Positions 44,337 through 62,828 of a stretch of DNA of 64,000 bases are shown here, in pieces; positions within the stretch are counted from its first letter, which is position 1; the number at the start of each line of letters is the position of its first letter. This stretch comes from a virus (lineage: Duplodnaviria; Heunggongvirae; Uroviricota; Caudoviricetes). The DNA is taken from the IMG/VR virus record IMGVR_UViG_3300029554_000003, positions 77,064 to 141,063 of that record; one strand, 5' to 3'. Under the pieces are notes generated by a model. It was given only the letters and a program-made list of their open reading frames with translations, had not been told where the DNA came from and ran no database searches. The translations under genes were made by a program, and so were the position numbers.

Positions 44337-44816
44337 CTATACAATCATATAATCGTCTACAAGACCCTTGGCCTTAGCACGAGCAGGCATGTAACGTCCA
44401 GCCCACATGCGCTTAATAACATCCTCGGGTACACGCTCAACACCACTACGCTTAGCATTCTGCGGCAAAGCAATGTCAAGACCACGGTTGAAGTACACAA
44501 GGATAACCTTATCGGCGTTCTTGCCGCAATTCTCGACAGTCTTACGAAGCGACTTCCAAGAGATGTGAGTAGCATCTGCAATTACGTTAATATCATTACA
44601 GAGGTTGTCATTAATCTGATTATAGAAGTCCTTGATAACGTCCTTCTCGTATTTAAAATAATCCATAGAAGGAAGGAAATCAGGGTCGTTTGCCATATAC
44701 TCAAAGCGGATATAATCGCGCGAAACAATCTCGGCATCAAGCTCGGCGTAATGCTCGTGCGCCCAAAACGACTTGCCGCAGCCAGGAATTCCTGCTAAAA
44801 TATAAAGGTTAGCCAT
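44337..44816 (-). CDS. P-loop polynucleotide-kinase-like protein (AAA_33/Pnk-like)
   Basis: N-terminal LYILAGIPGCGKS Walker A. About 160 aa. Size and motif resemble the kinase domain of T4 Pnk and related zeta-toxin-like kinases. Confidence 0.5.
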   Translation of the reverse strand: MANLYILAGIPGCGKSFWAHEHYAELDAEIVSRDYIRFEYMANDPDFLPSMDYFKYEKDVIKDFYNQINDNLCNDINVIADATHISWKSLRKTVENCGKNADKVILVYFNRGLDIALPQNAKRSGVERVPEDVIKRMWAGRYMPARAKAKGLVDDYMIV

Positions 44817-45283: not shown

Positions 45284-45321
45284 AAAAAAATAGGGTAACT
45301 TCTTTTATAGAAGTTACCCTA
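45284..45321 (-). terminator. intrinsic terminator ending the structured-RNA transcript
   Basis: Reverse-strand GGGTAACTTCT-ataaa-AGAAGTTACCC followed by TTTTTTTT. Confidence 0.6.
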
Positions 45322-45810
45322 CATAATGTGTGGAGGAAGTGACTGGTGACGCTCCAGATTCCCTGTTAAGGAACACATCGCTTTCGAGGCGAGTCCGAAC
45401 GCTGGTTCGATTCCACTTCCTTATGGCGGCTAACCGAAGTGCTGCCCTCCATTCCCTCTCGGGAACGCACCGCTTTCTAGGCGGGCCTAGTCGCTGGACT
45501 AGTTGATTAGCCAAAGCAGGATGCGTATTCACGGCGCATCCAGAGGGTCTGTTTTTACGGTGTTTCAGCTCACCTATTACTCCGTGAAAGCACTCGCTTA
45601 TCTCCTAGCAAGAAGGCTCGCTATTCTCTCGAATAGCTATGCGGTGTTGCCTATTCTACCGCAAAAGCTGTTTTCGGCACAGCTTCAAAGCCACCGCCAA
45701 TAGGGGCGTGAATGTATGGCGGGGCAACTGGAATACGATTCCAATACTTGAATCACAAGTACGTTCTGATTAGCAGTCAGACCTAACTCCCCGTTAGTTG
45801 TCTGCCCCAT
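45322..45810 (-). ncRNA. GC-rich hairpin-dense non-coding transcript (~490 nt), function unknown
   Basis: Over 50% GC in a 35% GC background. The ORFs on the track here (45314..45532-, 45503..45703+) are short and lack RBSs. A promoter-like sequence lies at ~45812-45838 on the reverse strand, and the terminator is at 45284-45321. More than eight perfect local hairpins of 5-7 bp. Confidence 0.4.
45717..45808 (-). tRNA. tRNA-Ser(GCU)-like, class II, with encoded CCA (non-canonical T-loop)
   Basis: Hand fold on the reverse strand. Acceptor GGGGCAG/TTGCCCC. D-arm CTAAC-GGGGA-GTTAG. Anticodon arm TCTGA-CUGCUAA-TCAGA. Long variable hairpin GTACTTG…CAAGTAT. T-arm TTGGA-ATCGTAT-TCCAG. Ends G-CCA. 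The T-loop departs from the T54/A58 consensus. Confidence 0.45.
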
Positions 45811-45985
45811 ATAAACAGCATCAGACCTCTCTCTGTCAAGTTTCGCTATAAAGAAGCGCTGCGAGTTATCATTATTCTGTATCTAATGCTGTTTTAAACA
45901 GGTAGGAGCGGCGTAAGAGATTCTAACTCTCACCAAAGGCTTGGAAGGCCTGTATGCTAACATTACACCAACGCCGCATATAAGG

Positions 45986-46059
45986 TGACAGTGATTAGAT
46001 TTGAACTAATGACCTCACGGGTATGAGCCGTGCGCTCTAACCATCTAAGCTACACTGCC
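45986..46059 (-). tRNA. tRNA-Met/Ile2 (CAU)
   Basis: GGCAGTG…GCTTAGATGGTTAGAGC…CACGG-CUCAUAC-CCGTG…CATTAGTTCAAATCTAATG-like T-arm…CACTGTC-A. Confidence 0.7.
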
Positions 46060-46073
46060 AAATAAACTAAAGG

Positions 46074-46146
46074 TGGGCCGTCAGGGGGTCGAACCCTGGA
46101 CCTTGGGATTAAGAGTCCCCTGCTCTACCAACTGAGCTAACGACCC
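46074..46146 (-). tRNA. tRNA-Lys (CUU)
   Basis: GGGTCGT TA GCTCAGTTGGTAGAGC A GGGGA-CUCUUAA-TCCCA AGGTC CAGGG-TTCGACC-CCCTG ACGGCCC A. One G·A at 27-43. Confidence 0.65.
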
Positions 46147-46154
46147 ATATAAGG

Positions 46155-46227
46155 TGTCCACGGGTAGAATTGAACTACCGACACGCAGATTTTCAGTCTA
46201 CTGCTCTACCTACTGAGCTACATGGAC
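46155..46227 (-). tRNA. tRNA-Phe (GAA)
   Basis: GTCCATG TA GCTCAGTAGGTAGAGC A GTAGA-CUGAAAA-TCTGC GTGTC GGTAG-TTCAATT-CTACC CGTGGAC A. Confidence 0.7.
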
Positions 46228-46231
46228 ATAT

Positions 46232-46306
46232 TGGCTTCTCTATTATGACTCGAACATAAACTAACGGAACCAAAATCCGTTGTGCTGCCAATTACACCAT
46301 AGAGAA
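46232..46306 (-). tRNA. tRNA-Gln (UUG) with encoded CCA
   Basis: U1:A72 acceptor TTCTCTA/TAGAGAA. Anticodon arm ACGGA-UUUUGGU-TCCGT. T-arm TTATG-TTCGAGT-CATAA. Then G-CCA. Confidence 0.65.
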
Positions 46307-46313
46307 ATTTTAG

Positions 46314-46385
46314 CGTGCCAGAGAAGATTCGAACTTCTATCTCGAGAGCGTCACCTCGCAATTTTGCCAGTTAAACTACTAACAC
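46314..46385 (-). tRNA. tRNA-like gene with non-canonical anticodon loop (6 or 8 nt)
   Basis: Perfect acceptor GTGTTAG/CTGGCAC (with G·U pairs). U8A9. D-arm GTTT-AACTGGCA-AAAT. Perfect T-arm AGAAG-TTCGAAT-CTTCT. Total length 72 nt. The anticodon helix CGAG(G)/(T)CTCG encloses GTGACGCT, so no 7-nt loop is possible. Anticodon undetermined. Confidence 0.45.
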
Positions 46386-46644: not shown

Positions 46645-47280
46645 TTAAATAAATTTCCAGTGTTTTTGATATGCAATTGTATTTGCTTTAGCTGCACTTC
46701 TAATATGCACAGTAATTCCACATATCTTTTTGGCTTGAGTATATTTATTCTCTTTTAAATATTTAGCCGCTTCTGTTATGGAATTAAAAATGATATTATC
46801 CGGTAGCATTAAAATTCTTTTACTATATTTTTGACGAACTAAATCTTGACTACTAAGAATAGAAACATTGCATTCTTCACAAGCTATTTTAACAGTTGAA
46901 ACATCACAACCGAAATATTGTGCTGTTTTCTTTTGATTTTGTAATTTTAAATACATATTAGCAATTTCTTGGTAATCGTAATATTTTTTACTATCGCCAC
47001 CTTTTGTAGCATTATATCCAGTATGACCATATGTGTTTAATTTAGCAATCCAATATTCTTCTCTTTTTGAAGAGTCTTCGGCAGAACATTCTTCTAATTG
47101 CTCAACATGAAAATGCTCAACGCCATATTTATTCATAGCAGAATACAGAGGACGTTTTTCACATCTTTCTTTTTTGCTATCTACAATATGCTCTCTAAAT
47201 CTTCTTTCGAGTGAAAAGTTGGTTTTGCCAACATATTGTTTTCCGTTAACATCATTTGTAATTACATAGATAAAAGCCAT
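46645..47280 (-). CDS. GIY-YIG homing endonuclease
   Basis: N-terminal IYVITNDVNGKQYVGKT…R…EH (GIY…YIG…R…E/H class). C-terminal DNA-binding region. Paralogue of 52591..53232. Sits at a tRNA cluster, as SegB does in T4. Confidence 0.65.
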   Translation of the reverse strand: MAFIYVITNDVNGKQYVGKTNFSLERRFREHIVDSKKERCEKRPLYSAMNKYGVEHFHVEQLEECSAEDSSKREEYWIAKLNTYGHTGYNATKGGDSKKYYDYQEIANMYLKLQNQKKTAQYFGCDVSTVKIACEECNVSILSSQDLVRQKYSKRILMLPDNIIFNSITEAAKYLKENKYTQAKKICGITVHIRSAAKANTIAYQKHWKFI

Positions 47281-47433
47281 ACAGTCCTCAATCCTACCTC
47301 AATAATAATATTGAGTAAGCAGGCGTTGAGGTTTATTCGCTTTTCCTTATGGTAGCTACTCCAATAAGTAGCTTACTCAATTATACAATATAAAAATCGT
47401 GTTATAGCGATTATATGATTTAGACCAAGATAG

Positions 47434-47524
47434 TGCAAGATTTTGGACTCGAACCAAAAATTTTCGCTAATCTGGCGATAATACAGTTTATAAGTCTGCT
47501 GTTTTACCATTAAACTAATCTTGC
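47434..47524 (-). tRNA. class-II-like tRNA embedded in a 17-bp extended stem; anticodon loop CUUAUAA (UAU?)
   Basis: Acceptor GCAAGAT/ATCTTGC. U8A9. D-arm GTTT-AATGGTA-AAAC. Anticodon arm GCAGA-CUUAUAA-ACTGT (A31·A39). Long variable hairpin TCGC-CAGATTA-GCGA. T-arm TTTGG-TTCGAGT-CCAAA. Flanked by the perfect 17-bp inverted repeat GACCAAGATAGTGCAAG/CTTGCACTATCTTGGTC. Confidence 0.5.
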
Positions 47525-47563
47525 ACTATCTTGGTCTTTATAAACTATAATCCAAAGTTTACA

Positions 47564-47637
47564 TGGACGATATTAAATTTGAACTAATGACCTCTTACGT
47601 ATCAATCAGCGCTCTAGCCAAACTGAGCTAACCGTCC
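47564..47637 (-). tRNA. tRNA-like paralogue of the CAU tRNA with disrupted anticodon stem (possible pseudogene)
   Basis: Acceptor GGACGGT/ATCGTCC. D-arm GCTC-AGTTTGGCTA-GAGC. T-arm ATTAG-TTCAAAT-TTAAT, nearly identical to 45986..46059. The anticodon region CTGATTGATACGTAAGA cannot form a 5-bp stem. Confidence 0.35.
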
Positions 47638-47681
47638 ATGCAATCTTTAGAATATAAATCTAATAAGTAACTGCTTTTAAA

Positions 47682-48587
47682 CTATTGGTGAGACTTTAGC
47701 CACTTCTGAACATACCAAAGCTGGCCGCACCCACCACCAATATCATCTTGACCAGCTGGGTCAAATGTCCTTACATTATAACCCTTTTTTAAGAACTTAT
47801 TCTGAAACTTCTTAATAACACTTAAGTTCCTAAACGCCGCGTCTTTCATGGTTTCATCAGATGCGCAAACTACACTAAAAGTAAAATTAAAGATTACAGG
47901 AGAAAACAGGTCTGTAAGTTCTTTAAAATTCTTATCTTCATTATTCGTTCCATCAATGCAGTAATTTAAGAACGGATGCCTACCTGTCTCTTTCCACCAG
48001 ATAGTTCCAGCATCCCTAATCTTTTGAAGATTCATCTTATTCTTAAATGGAATTAATACATTTCTCTCTGTATCATTGGACTTATGAATAGAAAATTGCA
48101 AACCAATTTTATCTATCTTCTTAGATAGAGCAATCATCTTTGCAAAAGTTTCATCATTATCGCATCCAATAGTCGAAAGTAGTAACTGAGCATTACTAAA
48201 CTGTTGATGAAGATTGATAATTGCTTTTTCAACTTCTGTCCAATTTAACATAGGCTCGCCCATGCTCATAAACATAAACTGTAACTTTTTACACTTTTCG
48301 TTAATGTCATTAATTAAACCTTTATCAGTTAAAACGGTTACAATCTGGTCTACAATTTCATCAGCAGTAAGATTCCTAACAAACTTAGACCCCGTGCCGC
48401 AAAAGCGACATCCAACAGGACAACCGCTCATAACACTACAACAAATTACAGTTCTATCATAGTAACTATTATATTTATATAGAACTGCTTCAGCGACCAT
48501 ATCTTTTTTTGTAAAGACATACTTCCATACATCGCCAGAATTTCCTTCAAAAGTCTTAAAATTCATAACAGCACTTTCATTTAGCAA
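47682..48587 (-). CDS. RlmN/Cfr-family radical-SAM RNA methyltransferase
   Basis: CCSVMSGCPVGCRFCGTG matches the CxxxCxxC cluster of the family. MSMGEPMLN matches MGMGEPLLN. LLSTIG matches TLSTSG. FSIHKSND matches ISLHAPND. C-terminal GQDDIGGGCGQLW matches GDDIDAACGQLAG. At 301 aa it is shorter than bacterial RlmN at the N-terminus. Confidence 0.65.
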   Translation of the reverse strand: MLNESAVMNFKTFEGNSGDVWKYVFTKKDMVAEAVLYKYNSYYDRTVICCSVMSGCPVGCRFCGTGSKFVRNLTADEIVDQIVTVLTDKGLINDINEKCKKLQFMFMSMGEPMLNWTEVEKAIINLHQQFSNAQLLLSTIGCDNDETFAKMIALSKKIDKIGLQFSIHKSNDTERNVLIPFKNKMNLQKIRDAGTIWWKETGRHPFLNYCIDGTNNEDKNFKELTDLFSPVIFNFTFSVVCASDETMKDAAFRNLSVIKKFQNKFLKKGYNVRTFDPAGQDDIGGGCGQLWYVQKWLKSHQ

Positions 48588-48817
48588 TCTTCGTCAAAAT
48601 AATAGTCTTCTAGCATAGCGGGAATGCCGTCAAGCAGCTCATTCTCGCCAAGAGTCTCTAAAGCAACATCAACCAAGTCGGCATCGTACATATCATAAAG
48701 CAGATCAAGATATGCGTCACGGTCAGATTTACTAATCTCCATTGTATTCCTCTTCGTCATACTCTCCATCATTGCATATCCAATCATTAACGCATACCTT
48801 GTCAGGTTCGTCATCAA
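48581..48817 (-). CDS. hypothetical acidic small protein
   Basis: 78 aa, after the conserved promoter copy at 48900-48960. Confidence 0.35.
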   Translation of the reverse strand: MMTNLTRYALMIGYAMMESMTKRNTMEISKSDRDAYLDLLYDMYDADLVDVALETLGENELLDGIPAMLEDYYFDEDC

Positions 48818-48974
48818 TTAAATGCTTGCGGCAAATTCCTAGATACCAAAGGTCTGTAGACTCATAATATTTGCAATTACCGCATATATTAGTCGCTTCA
48901 ACCATTATTTCTTCTTTCTCTTGGTTTCTTTAACTATATTATAGCATATCTTTTAACCAAAAGTCAAGAAAAAA

Positions 48975-49346
48975 TTAGGCATAAAATTCGTTGAAATTAT
49001 TAAGCCAATCCAAGAGAGCTAAAGATGTAAGTGGCGCCATGTTCCATAACTGCTCAGCACAATAAGTGCTAGTATGAGAAGGATTCTTTTCCATAGCATT
49101 TACAACAAGGTCATGGAAAACAGCACGGTCAACCTTTTTAAGTTCATCTACAATCTTCTCAATATCTTTCTGCTGACTAAGGTACACAATGAAATCAAGA
49201 ATCATAGCAGTCATTTTATTAAGGTGCATACTACACATTTCACTCATATTTCGACTCCAATTTAGGATGAATTGCCCATTCACCGCACCTGTCCCCACTT
49301 TGGGGAGAAGGATGTACAGTATAAACATTATAATCTGTTGGGTCAA
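48975..49346 (-). CDS. hypothetical protein
   Basis: 123 aa ORF. Confidence 0.35.
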   Translation of the reverse strand: MTQQIIMFILYILLPKVGTGAVNGQFILNWSRNMSEMCSMHLNKMTAMILDFIVYLSQQKDIEKIVDELKKVDRAVFHDLVVNAMEKNPSHTSTYCAEQLWNMAPLTSLALLDWLNNFNEFYA

Positions 49347-49438
49347 TAATTACATTTGGAGGAAAACGATAGCAACTGCAATTTTTGTAAAATCTGCAAT
49401 TGCCGCAGATACGCTGGACCTTATGCTTGACTTCCATT

Positions 49439-49975
49439 TTACTCTCCAAGCTCAATCTTCTTCTGCTGAACATCGAGCCAAATATCATGAATATTAACAG
49501 GAGTAAGATTATTCGTGTCAACACCTACATGATACGTCCAATCAACAAGACCCTTGGGAGCCGCATCATGGACATGACCGTACAGAATAACATTGGCGCT
49601 GTCTCCACACATTTCCTCGGGACGCTCGTGAATCATAATGAAACTGACATCGTTGTAATCAAGGCAAGATACCTTGTTTTCGATAATCCAGCCGAGCTTT
49701 TCCATTTCAGCAATGCGCTTCTTGGTATCGTGATTGCCGGGAATCACATGAATCTTTCCATTAAGACGAGAACCGTATTTAGCTACAGTCTCAAGCGGTC
49801 CCATGAAACAATCACCAAGATGGTAGACAGTATCATCAGGAGATACAACGGAATTCCACTTCTCAACGATGTGTTCGTTCATATCCTCGACATTATTAAA
49901 AGCACGCGACTGCTCACAATAGGTAATAATATTCTTGTGAGAAAAGTGAGTGTCGCTTACTACAAAGATGCTCAT
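49439..49975 (-). CDS. calcineurin-like metallophosphoesterase
   Basis: Likely start is MSIFVVSDTHFSH at 49975 (GGAGA RBS). Has the D-x-H, GD, GNHD and GH…H signature motifs. Confidence 0.65.
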   Translation of the reverse strand: MSIFVVSDTHFSHKNIITYCEQSRAFNNVEDMNEHIVEKWNSVVSPDDTVYHLGDCFMGPLETVAKYGSRLNGKIHVIPGNHDTKKRIAEMEKLGWIIENKVSCLDYNDVSFIMIHERPEEMCGDSANVILYGHVHDAAPKGLVDWTYHVGVDTNNLTPVNIHDIWLDVQQKKIELGE

Positions 49976-50033
49976 TGAATCTCCTTTCGATTTCTTAAAT
50001 ATATTATAACATAATATATAGCCAATAGTCAAC
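49976..50033 (-). promoter_or_regulatory. conserved promoter + leader copy
   Basis: Reverse strand TTGACT-N18-TATAAT, immediately after the terminator at 50034-50066. Confidence 0.55.
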
Positions 50034-50066
50034 AAAAAAAGGGACTCAAGAGAGTCCCTACAAAAA
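50034..50066 (-). terminator. intrinsic terminator closing tRNA cluster 2
   Basis: GGGACTC-tctt-GAGTCCC followed by TTTTTTT on the reverse strand. Confidence 0.6.
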
Positions 50067-52365: not shown

Positions 52366-52590
52366 CAGGCTGGCTCTTTCTGTGCTGCCCAGAAATTTTA
52401 TGATTCAGAGTCATATGTTCTACTGTTGAACTAAGAGCCAAAAAGTGGGCAAATTTATATAGCGACTGCCCAAACCGCTAAATTGACTTGGGGTAGTACA
52501 GGCGAGTTCAAAGCTCGGTCTACTACCACTTGGAGAGTGTCTAAGATTAGCACTCTATTTTAGTAATATATATATTACTAAAATACAACA

Positions 52591-53232
52591 CTAACTTTCT
52601 ACATATTCCCAATGGAAACCATACGATGTTTTGTTAATATTTTCACAAACCTGCTTAATATGCCTTGAAATTCCTTGTATAGATTTATTTGTAGTATAAT
52701 TGTTATCAAATAACCATTGAGACGCATCGTGCAATGATTGAAAAATTTTATTTTCTTCTATCAGTCGCACTTTTTTAGAATATCTTTCTTTACAAAGAGT
52801 ATTTGGTCGTAGCATTTCTATGCCACATTGTTTACATGCAAGTCGGACAGTATCAGCGCAACAATGAAAATATTTTGCTACTTTTATTGTATCATGTGTT
52901 TGTGAATACATGTCAGCTATTTTTTTATAATCATAAAATGAACAACCGTCTCCACCAATTGTAGCATTGTATCCATTGCGATAAGTATCTAATTTTGTTA
53001 TCCAATACTTTTCTTTTTCGTCAACTTCATCTGACGAACATTCTTCTAATTGAAAGGCATGAAAGTGCTCTACGCCATATTTTTTCATAGCTTTATAAAG
53101 AGGTCTACCTTGTATTTGTTCTTTTTTGCTGTCGCTTAAATGTTGGGCGAATCTTCTCTTAATTGTAAAATTAGTTTTTCCAACATATTTTTTGTTGTTG
53201 ACATCATTTACAATAACATAAATATAAGACAT
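52591..53232 (-). CDS. GIY-YIG homing endonuclease (second copy)
   Basis: Likely start is MSYIYVIVNDVNNKKYVGKT at 53232. Paralogue of 46645..47280, also adjacent to a tRNA-cluster promoter. Confidence 0.65.
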   Translation of the reverse strand: MSYIYVIVNDVNNKKYVGKTNFTIKRRFAQHLSDSKKEQIQGRPLYKAMKKYGVEHFHAFQLEECSSDEVDEKEKYWITKLDTYRNGYNATIGGDGCSFYDYKKIADMYSQTHDTIKVAKYFHCCADTVRLACKQCGIEMLRPNTLCKERYSKKVRLIEENKIFQSLHDASQWLFDNNYTTNKSIQGISRHIKQVCENINKTSYGFHWEYVES

Positions 53233-53502
53233 TTTATCACCCACTTAAATAATGAATGGAGCCAACTTAGGGTGCTGCCCCCTATGCTTCGCTTTACAAG
53301 AGCGATGTATTACTGTTATACTAAGCTGGCTTTACCAAAAAGAAAAATGAGCCTGCAATACTCTAGAAATCTTGCAGGCTCTAACACCACTATTACAATA
53401 TAAAAGTTGCGCAACAAAAATTATAACTTTTTGTCCAGAACTTTTATTTTGTAACTAAAAATATTATATCATATTGATATAAAGTCTGTCAAGAACTTTT
53501 TT

Positions 53503-57204: not shown

Positions 57205-58152
57205 TTAATTTTCAAACCAGTTTCGCAACTCGATAACCGAGGGGCAAGTTCCACGACCTTTCTCGCGGCACTCTTCTACAAACTCAGGGATTGCGTCCAT
57301 GAGACGAGGTTCAAATGCAAGCTTGGTCTTGATGTTCTTGATAGCATCAATGTCGCGTCCAGTCCAAACCTGCTGTAAAACTCCACGAGCCTGCTTCCAG
57401 TTCTTGTACCAAGGAGTCTTATATTTCACCATGAAACCGTTCGCATCCTCGAAGACAAAGCCCTCGATGTATGCACGTGCGGCCCACTTGTCAATAAAGG
57501 CTTCAAACTCCTGCCAGTTAGCAATGACTTTGCTAAGAACCTTGCAATAGAATCCGAAATGTCCCGCTACGTCAATAAGTGTATAGTACCCCGCATGGCT
57601 ATAGTTGAAATCATTGTACACCAAGTCCAAAAGCACGAGGTGAGGATGCGAATACTCAACAATATGCGGGTCATGGATAGGGTCAATGCACTCGAAGACA
57701 GCAGTGCAGTCATTCTTGTGCAGATATTCTGCGAATTCCTCCTGCTGTGCAGTGGTCAACGTCTTGTCAAGAACGTCACGGATATATCCCGCGAAGTCTC
57801 CTTCATTCGTGCTCTTGGATGCGATGAACAGTTTACCGTCCTCGGTCGGGTCGGCAGAAATCATCGCAAGGAATCCGTTAGACTTGACATATGCACACAC
57901 AGGGAACACAAGATTCTCGCGCAGGCTAGCCATTTCAGTCTCAGGACGTTCTCCAATATTGAAGAACTTGTTGTACGAACGTGCAACAACCTTATTATCA
58001 TCTTTTACAAAAAGTCCGCGTGCTTTAACATTAATATCATCCCATGCTTGGTTGAAAAAGCACTTGTTTGAGAAATTAAAAGAAGAGATTCCATTGGCAA
58101 GATGTTTCTCGCGCACAAGCGAGCTATTACGCAGTATATCGACTTCGTTCAT
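57205..58152 (-). CDS. ATP-dependent RNA ligase-like nucleotidyltransferase
   Basis: Candidate motif I is K in VKSNGFLAM. Motif IV is EGFVFED. Motif V is VKYKTPWYKNWK. At 315 aa the size fits the Rnl2/DraRnl class. Confidence 0.5.
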   Translation of the reverse strand: MNEVDILRNSSLVREKHLANGISSFNFSNKCFFNQAWDDINVKARGLFVKDDNKVVARSYNKFFNIGERPETEMASLRENLVFPVCAYVKSNGFLAMISADPTEDGKLFIASKSTNEGDFAGYIRDVLDKTLTTAQQEEFAEYLHKNDCTAVFECIDPIHDPHIVEYSHPHLVLLDLVYNDFNYSHAGYYTLIDVAGHFGFYCKVLSKVIANWQEFEAFIDKWAARAYIEGFVFEDANGFMVKYKTPWYKNWKQARGVLQQVWTGRDIDAIKNIKTKLAFEPRLMDAIPEFVEECREKGRGTCPSVIELRNWFEN

Positions 58153-61895: not shown

Positions 61896-62828
61896 TTATT
61901 TTGTATTGACTACTGGAGTAGAGCCTTGCGGCACAACGACAGTATTACCATTCTTTGACATTTCCTTTAGAGCATCAATGTACTCTTGGGTTAGAACATT
62001 ATCAGTTAGAGACTCGTTGAGTACACGGTTTGCTTCTGCTTCTTTAGTAGCTTCAATAACCTTAGTCTCACCCTTAATCTTTGCAGTCTCCTGCTGATTC
62101 TGAGCCTTAGCTTTCTCTACTTCTGCGGCCTGAGAATCAGCATAAGCATTGGTAATGGATTTAGCATAAGAAATATCCTGAACGCTTACTTGCTCAACAG
62201 TAAGACCAATCTTAGACCACTTCTTTTCAAGAGCTTTTTGGACAGCCTTTGTGTACTGAGCGCGGTCAGTTAGCATTGTAATTGTATCGAATTGACCTGA
62301 AACTTCACGTGCAACAGAGCGTAGGTCATTAGCCGCGTAATTCTTAGTAAAGTTCTCTTGAGTGCCATATTCAGTGTAAAGATACTCAGCCGTCTTCGGG
62401 TCAAGGCTGTAGTTAATCTGAATATCAACATTAGCAGAAGAACCTGACTTATCATTTACAGTTACGCAAGGACCATCAGCGGAGCCACCATCATAGGAGT
62501 ATTCTGTGTCTTTACCGTAAAAGTTGATTAGGTTATTGCGCGTATCAAACGTAATTATATTGTTCCAAGGCGCAGTGAAATGAAAGCCTGCGTCTGTAGT
62601 AGACCCAGCTAGATTGCCGCCAAGAGAACGAAGAACAACTACTTCACCAACGTCTTGAGAATAGATGCTGCTAAGACCAATAGCAACTAGACCAAGCACG
62701 ATAACTATGACTCGCCTTCCTAGCGGAATACGCTCTTCATGTTCGTCTTCTTTGAAGAAGGATAGACATGTAGCAATTCCAGTAATCGTAATAAGAATAC
62801 CGATAGTAAAAAAAAGAATTTTAAACAT
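61896..62828 (-). CDS. SPFH/band-7 (stomatin/prohibitin-like) membrane protein
   Basis: Two N-terminal transmembrane segments, then an SPFH-like core (…VGEVVVLRSLGGNLAG…FHFTAPWNNIITFDTRN…), then an Ala/Glu/Lys-rich coiled-coil tail. Confidence 0.5.
   Translation of the reverse strand: MFKILFFTIGILITITGIATCLSFFKEDEHEERIPLGRRVIVIVLGLVAIGLSSIYSQDVGEVVVLRSLGGNLAGSTTDAGFHFTAPWNNIITFDTRNNLINFYGKDTEYSYDGGSADGPCVTVNDKSGSSANVDIQINYSLDPKTAEYLYTEYGTQENFTKNYAANDLRSVAREVSGQFDTITMLTDRAQYTKAVQKALEKKWSKIGLTVEQVSVQDISYAKSITNAYADSQAAEVEKAKAQNQQETAKIKGETKVIEATKEAEANRVLNESLTDNVLTQEYIDALKEMSKNGNTVVVPQGSTPVVNTK

Follow-up and report, generated by a model that had tools for sequence, protein, structure and literature searches.

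The radical S-adenosylmethionine (SAM) gene described here lies on the minus strand of a 64,000-nucleotide stretch of phage DNA (the window; positions 77,064 to 141,063 of the IMG/VR record IMGVR_UViG_3300029554_000003, Caudoviricetes) and encodes a short relative of the methyltransferases RlmN and Cfr. We found that its product belongs to a truncated clade set apart from canonical RlmN and Cfr, and that this clade is genomically coupled to the salvage and reconstitution of nicotinamide adenine dinucleotide (NAD+). Since the NAD context of the whole clade, its gene fusions and its loss of RNA-binding features favour a nucleotide role, we propose that the substrate is an adenine-containing nucleotide of the NAD+/ADP-ribose pool, and not A2503 of 23S rRNA or A37 of tRNA; we put the probability of this reading at about 0.4. 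Portal, terminase-like, virion protein and sigma factor genes were found in the window, which bears out the initial annotation in calling the gene phage-encoded.

The open reading frame (ORF) at 47682..48587 runs for 301 codons on the minus strand when it is counted from a TTG, and this TTG overlaps the stop codon of the upstream ORF. Because of this overlap, and because hundreds of homologues of 294–297 amino acids have MN(F/Y)K as their N-terminus, we chose the ATG at 48566, which is almost certainly the real start and would give a protein of 294 amino acids. The gene of a sibling protein (P0001) differs by 1 nt ahead of the start, which brings another ATG into frame (MKVAVMNF...); this ATG is out of frame in the window. 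The parts of the gene are as follows.

47682..48566, minus strand: short RlmN-like radical-SAM gene, stop codon counted in (ORF list; start reassigned by homologues)
48567..48587, minus strand: seven extra codons from TTG, overlapping the stop of the upstream ORF, probably untranslated (ORF list)
48399..48422, minus strand: codons of C49-x3-C53-x2-C56, the [4Fe-4S]/SAM cluster motif, equivalent to C125, C129 and C132 of E. coli RlmN (alignment)
48441..48443, minus strand: codon of C42, equivalent to C118 of E. coli RlmN, the cysteine that resolves the covalent intermediate (alignment)
47727..47729, minus strand: codon of C280, equivalent to C355 of E. coli RlmN and C338 of Cfr, the methyl-carrier cysteine, within DDIGGGCGQL (alignment)

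The gene has 100% identical copies in the IMG/VR contig 3300045988_112415 and in a 140.6 kb human-gut contig (OGNR01000006.1), and its synteny is preserved in siblings, on more than 20 contigs with lengths of 80–148 kb. Considering that the ratio of nonsynonymous to synonymous divergence (dN/dS) against the sibling phages is 0.06–0.1, the gene is maintained in the phage by purifying selection.

RlmN is a dual-specificity methyltransferase that forms m2A2503 in 23S rRNA and m2A37 in tRNA, and Cfr forms m8A2503 in 23S rRNA, which provides resistance against phenicols, lincosamides, oxazolidinones, pleuromutilins and streptogramin A (PhLOPSA). The translation of the phage gene contains, in this order, CPVGCRFC (the CxxxCxxC cluster), MSMGEP, LLLSTIG, FSIHKSND and GQDDIGGGCGQL, that is, all five of the collinear family motifs which the initial annotation had listed. 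An NCBIfam search matched TIGR00048 (RlmN) at E = 4.8e-32 with the Cfr models next nearest; a Pfam search returned the generic Radical_SAM domain only (32 bits), and a PDB sequence search returned only RlmN/Cfr chains (6fz6, 1.8e-20; 9p0p, 1e-15; 3rf9, 2.6e-12). An AlphaFold2 model built from a 72-sequence alignment reached a mean predicted local distance difference test score (pLDDT) of 95.1 and a predicted template modelling score (pTM) of 0.92. In Foldseek, this predicted fold matched RlmN structures at E = 1e-17 to 5e-20 with a template modelling (TM) score of about 0.8, and its best 11 PDB fold matches were all RlmN or Cfr (TM 0.64–0.81).

For residue comparison, authentic E. coli rlmN, cfr and cfr(D) were aligned with 88 relatives. 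C49, C53, C56, C42 and C280 of the window protein align to C125, C129, C132, C118 and C355 of E. coli RlmN. The absence of the methyl-carrier cysteine, which had been named as grounds for giving up the family assignment, does not apply, as C280 aligns to C355. To follow the residues and the gene neighbourhoods through the clade, we gathered 195 loci in which the gene is near-complete and dereplicated them into 94 lineages by 80% single linkage; the sources were the window itself, phages in GenBank, GTDB genomes, IMG/VR, metagenomes of JGI/ENA and lookups of exact proteins. The cluster cysteines are invariant in all 94 lineages, gaps aside, and both mechanistic cysteines are also conserved across the clade. 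Alignment and predicted fold clearly show that the methylase core, of the class A radical-SAM type, is intact and has both mechanistic cysteines, and that the protein is a member of the RlmN/Cfr superfamily. Thus, of the earlier assignment to the RlmN/Cfr family, the superfamily stands on sequence, fold and cysteines, whereas an identity as RlmN or as Cfr is contradicted by the profile scores, the tree and the pocket residues.

The window protein scores 111.3 bits against TIGR00048, below the RlmN cutoff of 290, and 53–73 bits against the other RlmN equivalog models, whose cutoffs are 422–633. Its scores against the Cfr models NF000424, TIGR04432 and NF011024 are 89.2, 82.0 and 84.4 bits, respectively, versus cutoffs of 530, 550 and 468. 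By these scores, the phage protein is an orthologue of neither RlmN nor Cfr. In a neighbour-joining tree of 32 short-signature and 18 canonical RlmN/Cfr sequences (Kimura distances, capped), the bipartition between the two groups was recovered in 80 of 80 bootstrap replicates, and mean identity was 0.41 inside each group versus 0.27 across groups. Placement against the RlmN and Cfr clades, which had been suggested as a check, therefore puts the protein outside both, in a clade of its own.

A structural study from 2025 has reported that ten residues within 5 Å of A2503 distinguish Cfr from RlmN, and that Q329 of Cfr is needed for C8 methylation. None of the Cfr signature (M95/Y97/W101/S103/D150/S151/S153/S328/Q329/F330) is matched in the window protein, with the possible exception of one tyrosine: Q329 is replaced by P270, a proline that is invariant in the clade, S328 by D, F330 by A and W101 by R. 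The Cfr-specific set, which the initial annotation had wished to see checked, is thus missing. The RlmN positions that align unambiguously are the following.

RlmN R114: R38 in the window protein, retained
RlmN T116: V40 in the window protein
RlmN N172: Q96 in the window protein
RlmN V174: M98 in the window protein
RlmN K345: D269 in the window protein
RlmN T346 (Cfr Q329): P270 in the window protein
RlmN R347: A271 in the window protein

Canonical sequences of the same alignment retain N172 and V174. R38, V40, Q96, M98, D/N269 and P270 are essentially invariant both in the 21 lineages that are linked to NAD genes (see below) and in the 73 others; A271 is invariant in the NAD-linked lineages and is found in most of the others (53 of 73). 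By this alignment, the pocket of the window protein has a third residue set, specific to the clade and matching neither Cfr nor RlmN.

The clade also differs in what surrounds this core. The window protein has 294 amino acids versus 340–384 for canonical members, and its match begins at position 81 of 355 in the RlmN profile and at residue 93 of 6fz6, so that the roughly 80 N-terminal residues said to be missing relative to RlmN are indeed absent. In the published Cfr-rRNA model, K27 and K35 of this N-terminal domain touch rRNA. Further basic contact positions have been lost as follows.

Cfr R184 equivalent: basic in 94% of canonical sequences versus 0% of the short clade; A in the window protein
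Cfr R185 equivalent: basic in 67% of canonical sequences versus 0% of the short clade; Q in the window protein
Cfr K250 equivalent: basic in 89% of canonical sequences versus 41% of the short clade; H in the window protein

The median core isoelectric point (pI) is 5.7 in the short clade versus 8.2 in canonical members. By these comparisons, the short clade has lost its RNA-contact arginines along with the N-terminal domain that binds RNA.

In summary, the short clade shares with RlmN (TIGR00048; PDB 3RFA, 5HR7, 6FZ6) the fold, the CxxxCxxC motif, the mechanistic cysteine pair, MGEP, S-x-H and the C-terminal CGQL, and presumably also the chemistry by way of a methyl-cysteine and a thiomethylene radical. 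It differs from RlmN in its sequence (20–27% identity), in the N-terminal domain that only RlmN has, in its altered base-proximal residues and lost RNA-contact arginines, and in its neighbours, which belong to NAD metabolism and not to the usual rlmN context. With Cfr (PDB 9P0P), it shares superfamily, fold and cysteines, and some short-clade copies are on mobile elements; unlike Cfr, it has neither the N-terminal domain nor the Cfr signature nor an occurrence on plasmids. Among the 72,556 plasmids of PLSDB, no clade member was found, and the best matches (at most 31% identity) were true cfr or rlmN genes. The PADLOC-DB defence models gave no match for the window protein, for another copy (P0073) or for the Vibrio phage copy. 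A precedent for superfamily members that do not methylate A2503 is provided by the clostridial "Cfr-like" proteins ClCs and ClCp, which leave A2503 unmethylated and for which no target has been identified (Stojkovic et al. 2016, PMC5062987). Because of this precedent, membership in the family would not guarantee an A2503 target. As described, ClCs and ClCp are Cfr-like paralogues that cluster beside Cfr, whereas the short clade is truncated at the N-terminus and stands apart from every sequence of canonical length.

The neighbourhood of the gene was analysed by clustering, without prior labels, all neighbour ORFs within 3 kb in the 94 lineages, and the identities of the resulting families were confirmed with Pfam. 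The most frequent families, with the number of lineages in which each was found, are these.

Nampt/Namat-family phosphoribosyltransferase: 14 lineages
NrtR-type Nudix protein with winged-helix domain: 10 lineages
PncA: 6 lineages
NadE: 6 lineages
Prs/Adps-like protein: 6 lineages
PncB: 5 lineages
Helicase: 4 lineages
RtcB RNA ligase: 4 lineages
AAA_33 kinase: 3 lineages

The six top-ranked families are all NAD-metabolism genes. With profile hidden Markov models, an NAD gene was found within 3 kb in 21 of the 94 lineages. It lies within 500 bp in 15 of the 81 adequately flanked lineages, on the same strand every time, and the linkage is seen in copies whose identity to the window protein ranges from 44% to 80%. 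Of the 45 lineages flanked by 6 kb or more on each side, 17 have an NAD gene in the locus, nine of them within 100 bp. A tRNA is present in the locus of 14 of these 45, within 100 bp only in the window's own lineage; the other tRNA distances range from 0.7 to 7 kb and are spread like random placement. Thus, adjacency to a tRNA is peculiar to the phage lineage of the window. Given that NARP1 has been reported in about 4.3% of phage genomes, adjacency to NAD genes in roughly a fifth of the lineages is far above expectation, and the short clade is genomically coupled to NAD+ salvage and reconstitution.

The coupling involves three routes to NAD+, each represented by six lineages: NARP1-like pairs (Prs-like and Nampt-family), NARP2-like pairs (Nampt-family and NMNAT/Nudix) and Preiss-Handler/NrtR operons. 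For example, Vibrio phage 496E54-1 has the gene order Prs-like, Nampt-family, radical-SAM. In a Bacilli metagenome-assembled genome (MAG; L016), the order is Prs, radical-SAM, NadD/NadK fusion and NrtR. The locus of Candidatus Ventrenecus (L014) reads PncA-PncB-radical-SAM-NadE-(small second radical-SAM)-NadD-PncC-NadK-NrtR, with all genes abutting on one strand. The second radical-SAM protein of this operon (L014:10824-11525, 233 amino acids, between NadE and NadD) has a CIYHCPFC motif and does not recur in other lineages. In another Bacilli MAG (L020:8001-8872), a short radical-SAM gene that follows PncA, PncB, NadE and NadD is split by a frameshift, from a pseudogene or an assembly error. 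Fusions are also found. In one clade member (P0123; 50% identical, with the same pocket signature), a NUDIX domain is appended at the C-terminus, and genes for Nampt and NMNAT follow directly downstream. A remoter short relative (P0201, L206:724-3003; 759 amino acids, 33% identical) is fused to an HD/HD_assoc domain of the dGTPase type, and this HD part matches the PADLOC model of an anti-phage dGTPase. Both fusion partners, NUDIX and HD, act on free nucleotides.

The published two-gene pathways NARP1 (Adps and Namat) and NARP2 (Nampt and Nmnat) (doi 10.1101/2024.02.11.579819) have no radical-SAM component, whereas at least 12 phage lineages have the short radical-SAM gene in a same-strand string with such a pair, and one radical-SAM protein is fused to a Nudix domain. 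These partners are assigned by family, as Prs-like, Nampt-family and NMNAT/Nudix, a level that does not distinguish true Adps and Namat. No radical-SAM partner is mentioned in the papers on NARP1, NARP2 and NARP3, in the preprints on RES and RyR or in the founding NrtR regulon paper, and our literature search found no description of a radical-SAM gene together with NARP, Nampt, NrtR or phage RlmN. In the NrtR regulon, NrtR-controlled nrtX-nrtY pairs were reported from Streptomyces, Frankia, Proteus and Hahella, with neither function nor identity given (Rodionov et al. 2008, PMC2330246). The enzyme family is established, and GenBank already contains several of the phage copies, albeit with generic or wrong labels. 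What seems to be new is a separate truncated clade with an invariant pocket, which moves among gut-bacterial chromosomes, serine-recombinase cassettes and phages, and its systematic coupling to NAD+ metabolism, the Nudix fusion included.

How the short clade might act can be sketched from its relatives. In RlmN and Cfr, one SAM methylates a cysteine, another SAM supplies a radical that converts the methyl group to a thiomethylene radical, and a second cysteine resolves the adduct. By homology, the first SAM would methylate C280, and the second would be cleaved at the iron-sulfur cluster held by C49, C53 and C56 to yield a 5'-deoxyadenosyl radical. This radical would turn the S-methyl group of C280 into a thiomethylene radical, which would add to an sp2 carbon of an adenine ring; C42 would then resolve the covalent adduct, with a C-methyl group remaining. 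Judging from the genomic context, the acceptor may be NAD+ or ADP-ribose, or else a derivative of low abundance, for example a signal based on ADP-ribose, with the methyl group going to C2 or C8 of adenine. NAD+ and its breakdown products nicotinamide and ADP-ribose are the prime candidates because they are common to all three associated pathways. NAD-linked and unlinked copies do not differ in their pocket residues, and we therefore assume that the entire clade shares a single substrate. In the phage of the window, the gene is uncoupled from NAD genes, housed in a tRNA and RNA-repair island and kept under purifying selection.

Several observations weigh against a nucleotide substrate. To our knowledge, all biochemically characterised members of the superfamily use RNA, and we know of no class A radical-SAM methylase that acts on a free nucleotide. 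Bulk methylation of a millimolar NAD pool is kinetically implausible for a slow enzyme that spends two SAM per turnover, and for this reason a low-abundance signal or regulator is a likelier target than bulk NAD+. Adjacency indicates functional coupling and says nothing of the identity of the substrate. About three quarters of the lineages have no NAD gene inside 3 kb, and RtcB RNA ligase recurs near the gene in four. No NAD-pathway gene was found across the 64 kb window of this phage of about 140 kb, which sets the window apart from the NARP1- and NARP2-like strings; its local context consists of tRNAs with an RNA ligase, a kinase and a phosphoesterase, and a consensus promoter match allows for co-transcription of the radical-SAM gene with tRNAs. 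The core of the window protein is itself basic (pI 8.3), unlike the median of its clade. On a bolder reading, which we regard as less likely than not, the short clade would be the first of the class A radical-SAM methylases to act on a substrate other than RNA, by C-methylating the adenine of NAD+, ADP-ribose or an immune signal derived from ADP-ribose, and would be an unrecognised third component of NARP1-/NARP2-like modules and of NrtR-controlled NAD operons in gut bacteria. If so, a methylated cofactor or signal could escape the NADases or effectors of defence systems in the arms race over NAD depletion.

An alternative is that the protein is an RNA C-methyltransferase with a specificity unlike that of RlmN or Cfr, modifying C2 or C8 of adenine in phage or host tRNAs or in other RNA. 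We regard this alternative as unlikely, though it deserves to be taken seriously. Such an enzyme, set in the tRNA region of the phage, could tune decoding or shield anticodon loops from host tRNA-cleaving defences. The surroundings of the gene in the window are listed below.

48581..48817, minus strand: upstream small ORF, 78 amino acids, abutting the radical-SAM gene, no family match
48732..48905, minus strand: upstream Cys-rich ORF, 57 amino acids, CGNC...C...C; HiPIP-like PF18524 below threshold (16 bits versus cutoff 28)
48938..48967, minus strand: sigma-70-like promoter match, TTGACT-18-TATAAT with extended TG (consensus match only)
47563..47638, minus strand: tRNA-like gene with an unusual anticodon loop (ARAGORN, Rfam)
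47433..47524, minus strand: 92-nt tRNA-Ile, anticodon UAU (ARAGORN, Rfam)
45905..46385, minus strand: array of six tRNAs (Gly, Met, Lys, Phe, Gln and one unassigned)
46645..47280, minus strand: GIY-YIG homing endonuclease between tRNA blocks (sibling locus annotated PF01541)
49439..50035, minus strand: metallophosphoesterase gene (Metallophos_2, E = 8e-11)
44337..44816, minus strand: P-loop kinase, AAA_33/KTI12-like, which could be a polynucleotide or nucleoside kinase
57205..58152, minus strand: T4 Rnl1-family RNA ligase (tRNA repair; PF09511, E = 6e-42)

The island holds in total about 13 tRNA genes, two GIY-YIG endonucleases, a metallophosphoesterase, an AAA_33 kinase and an Rnl1-family ligase, an inventory that is one of a tRNA supply-and-repair region. 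The first tRNA begins 43 nt past the stop codon, so that the gene does adjoin tRNA genes, as had been noted. No terminator-like site was found from the promoter match through to the tRNAs, and the putative promoter (48967..48938), a strong match to the consensus, could drive the two small ORFs, the radical-SAM gene and the first tRNAs. A second small Cys-rich ORF lies further upstream (49240-49524, 94 amino acids, CGNC); either Cys-rich ORF might encode a metal-binding or redox partner.

The local context favours an RNA target. Points in its favour are the tRNA downstream with no terminator-like site between, the island shared with ligase, P-loop kinase and metallophosphoesterase, the basic core and retained R114-equivalent arginine of the window protein, and the RNA substrates of all characterised relatives. 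RtcB, Rnl1 or a kinase also recur by the gene in a few other lineages, and the copy of Stenotrophomonas phage ANB28 likewise lies within a tRNA cluster. The clade context, the fusions and the lost RNA features point instead to a nucleotide role. There is no N-terminal RNA-binding domain, the RNA-stacking arginines are lost clade-wide, and the tRNA distances look random, with only the window lineage, among the 14 of 45 with a tRNA in the locus, inside 100 bp. The invariant pocket is common to copies in bacterial NAD operons without any phage tRNA context, and a Nudix fusion and membership in NAD operons are hard to explain for a tRNA enzyme. The earlier suggestion that a phage copy could reprogram tRNA A37 modification therefore agrees with the tRNA adjacency in the window and not with the clade, whose steady neighbours are NAD genes.

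An exhaustive search of 1.84 billion representative proteins gave 69 clusters (50% level) at E < 1e-30, mostly of 280–320 amino acids, and canonical-length proteins appeared only under about 100 bits. A profile search of 5.8 billion proteins was dominated by a gut-Bacilli subclade and added no diversity. In metagenomes from the gut and the environment, the short clade amounts to thousands of sequence clusters, and IMG/VR has a relative on at least 265 viral contigs. Cultured phages carry copies with 43–54% identity, namely Vibrio phages (about 130–139 kb), Salmonella phage Arash, Stenotrophomonas phages ANB28 and BUCTxx99, Xanthomonas phage JGB6 and Aeromonas phage Ahp1; a copy in this range was also found in an uncultured phage of 462 kb. 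Their GenBank labels vary ("hypothetical", "radical SAM, partial", "RlmN", "prohibitin family protein"), and the last, used for JGB6 and BUCTxx99, is apparently a mis-annotation. An SPFH/Band 7 (prohibitin-like) gene is also present in the window (61896-62828). Because a megablast of the region against the INPHARED phages gave tRNA-sized matches only, the phage has no close cultured relative.

Beyond sibling phages, the closest relatives are bacterial (74–84% identical), and these loci have no further gene in common with the window. The copies with 82–84% identity are chromosomal genes of uncultured gut Bacilli. The bacterial variants seen most often are P0029 and P0033, the latter with its exact sequence in 284 data blocks. 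They sit at a stable chromosomal position in a gut bacterium that is abundant and uncultured, with the order CN-hydrolase, peptide deformylase, NT5C/nucleoside hydrolase, MGMT-like, radical-SAM, Tag-like glycosylase, acetyltransferase, His_Phos_1, ..., TilS, Ham1p. Other variants (77–80% identical) are each the sole cargo gene of a Tn4451-like cassette, next to genes for a NikA-like protein, TnpV and a large serine recombinase; in gut Firmicutes MAGs, these cassettes adjoin tRNA-Gly and tmRNA genes. We rejected the serine-recombinase/TnpV cassette as a general context, as it is true of one sub-lineage only. In the gut Bacilli contigs L007-L009 and L041, arrays of such cassettes (NikA-like, TnpV, large serine recombinase) lie by tRNA-Gly(UCC) and tmRNA, and their cargo comprises the short radical-SAM gene, an Apyc1-like anti-Pycsar metallo-beta-lactamase, NUDIX, Abi_C and methyltransferases. 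Carriers in GTDB are uncultured Bacilli and Clostridia, Candidatus Ventrenecus, Candidatus Faecimonas and Victivallis. The most likely source of the phage gene is the gut Bacilli lineage of its host. Synonymous divergence between phage and bacterial copies is saturated, so the transfer between phage and bacteria is old.

The gut Bacilli locus invites a different reading, in which the enzyme serves (deoxy)nucleotide pools or DNA modification and is unrelated to NAD, for example by producing an analogue of (d)ATP with a C-methyl group, to serve as a modified base or as an antimetabolite. We consider this improbable. The analogy is with viperin and the prokaryotic viperins, radical-SAM enzymes of host-virus conflict that act on free nucleotides and gave weak fold matches to the model; these perform a dehydration to 3'-deoxy-3',4'-didehydro-NTP (ddh-NTP) and not a methylation, are without the mechanistic cysteine pair and belong to another subfamily (TM about 0.5). 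In gut Bacilli, the gene stands between MGMT-like and Tag-like 3-methyladenine glycosylase genes and near nucleotidase/nucleoside hydrolase, His_Phos_1 and Ham1p-type NTP pyrophosphatase genes, neighbours that police abnormal purines, and the fusion to a defence-type dGTPase HD domain fits the same picture. That fusion, however, belongs to a different group that is only 33% identical, PADLOC gave no match, and no polymerase, glycosylase or DNA-modification gene recurs in the unbiased neighbour analysis, whereas NAD genes do. A role in cobamide synthesis (2-methyladenine as a lower ligand, with CobT as the link to nicotinic acid mononucleotide) was also considered and rejected: no cob gene recurs among the neighbours, and the phage copies would be unexplained.

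It is very improbable that the gene is a passenger with no role in the phage, picked up recently in a recombination-prone tRNA and homing-endonuclease island. NAD partner genes are absent from the 64 kb window, and the region is a plastic accessory island, marked by the GIY-YIG gene, with two such endonucleases and a tRNA content that differs among siblings; yet the gene is intact with all catalytic residues, is syntenic in the more than 20 sibling contigs at the dN/dS of 0.06–0.1, and the saturated synonymous divergence from bacterial copies points to an old transfer.

Least probable, and hardly to be expected, is the mobile Cfr-like resistance determinant that the initial annotation had raised, which would methylate C8 of A2503 and protect against antibiotics of the peptidyl-transferase centre: it shares the superfamily of Cfr, and its 77–80% identical relatives are cargo of Tn4451-like cassettes, a typical setting for resistance genes, but the Cfr models score 82–89 bits versus cutoffs of 468–550, the Cfr-specific residues are unmatched with an invariant proline at Q329, the N-terminal domain and the rRNA-contact residues are lacking, the clade is missing from 72,556 plasmids and turns up in Vibrio, Salmonella, Stenotrophomonas and Aeromonas phages and in housekeeping NAD operons, and even full-length clostridial "Cfr-like" proteins leave A2503 alone (PMC5062987).

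Annotation pipelines label such RlmN/Cfr lookalikes as rRNA methyltransferases or as potential linezolid and phenicol resistance genes. Short-clade copies from phages and gut MAGs should not be counted as mobile cfr-like resistance genes. An uncharacterised radical-SAM step may exist in phage counter-defence against NAD+ depletion and in the NrtR regulons of gut Bacilli, and class A radical-SAM methylase chemistry may reach free nucleotides. Cultured carriers exist, namely Vibrio phage 496E54-1 and relatives, Salmonella phage Arash and the T5-like phages of Stenotrophomonas and Xanthomonas.

The tRNA region itself showed further features. Two of its tRNAs (52370..52440 and 53260..53330) were found by Rfam and missed by ARAGORN, and a second GIY-YIG homing endonuclease lies at 52591-53244. 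ARAGORN assigned four-base "anticodons" (gata, gacg) to the genes at 47563-47638 and 46313-46385, which reach only 39–41 bits against the Rfam tRNA model. Siblings with an identical radical-SAM gene differ in their tRNAs; one of them (L021) has Asn and Lys(UUU) versus Phe and Lys(CUU) in the window. The presence of GIY-YIG genes in the region, together with the variable tRNA sets of the siblings, suggests that the tRNA array is shuffled by the endonucleases.

Between the AAA_33 kinase gene and tRNA-Gly lies a GC-rich patch of about 530 nt (45300-45830; 46–61% GC versus about 30% in the flanks). Rfam scans, of the whole window at the gathering threshold and of 45–46 kb in E-value mode, returned tRNAs only. 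Both strands of the patch fold well under shuffled controls (z about -3.9), and the plus strand has repeated hairpin modules and a T-loop-like GGUUCGAUUCC motif. In siblings, the patch is 89–100% conserved, and its sub-blocks (1–131, about 132–338 and 339–531) come and go independently. It may consist of degenerate or unusual tRNA-like genes, or represent a new non-coding RNA.

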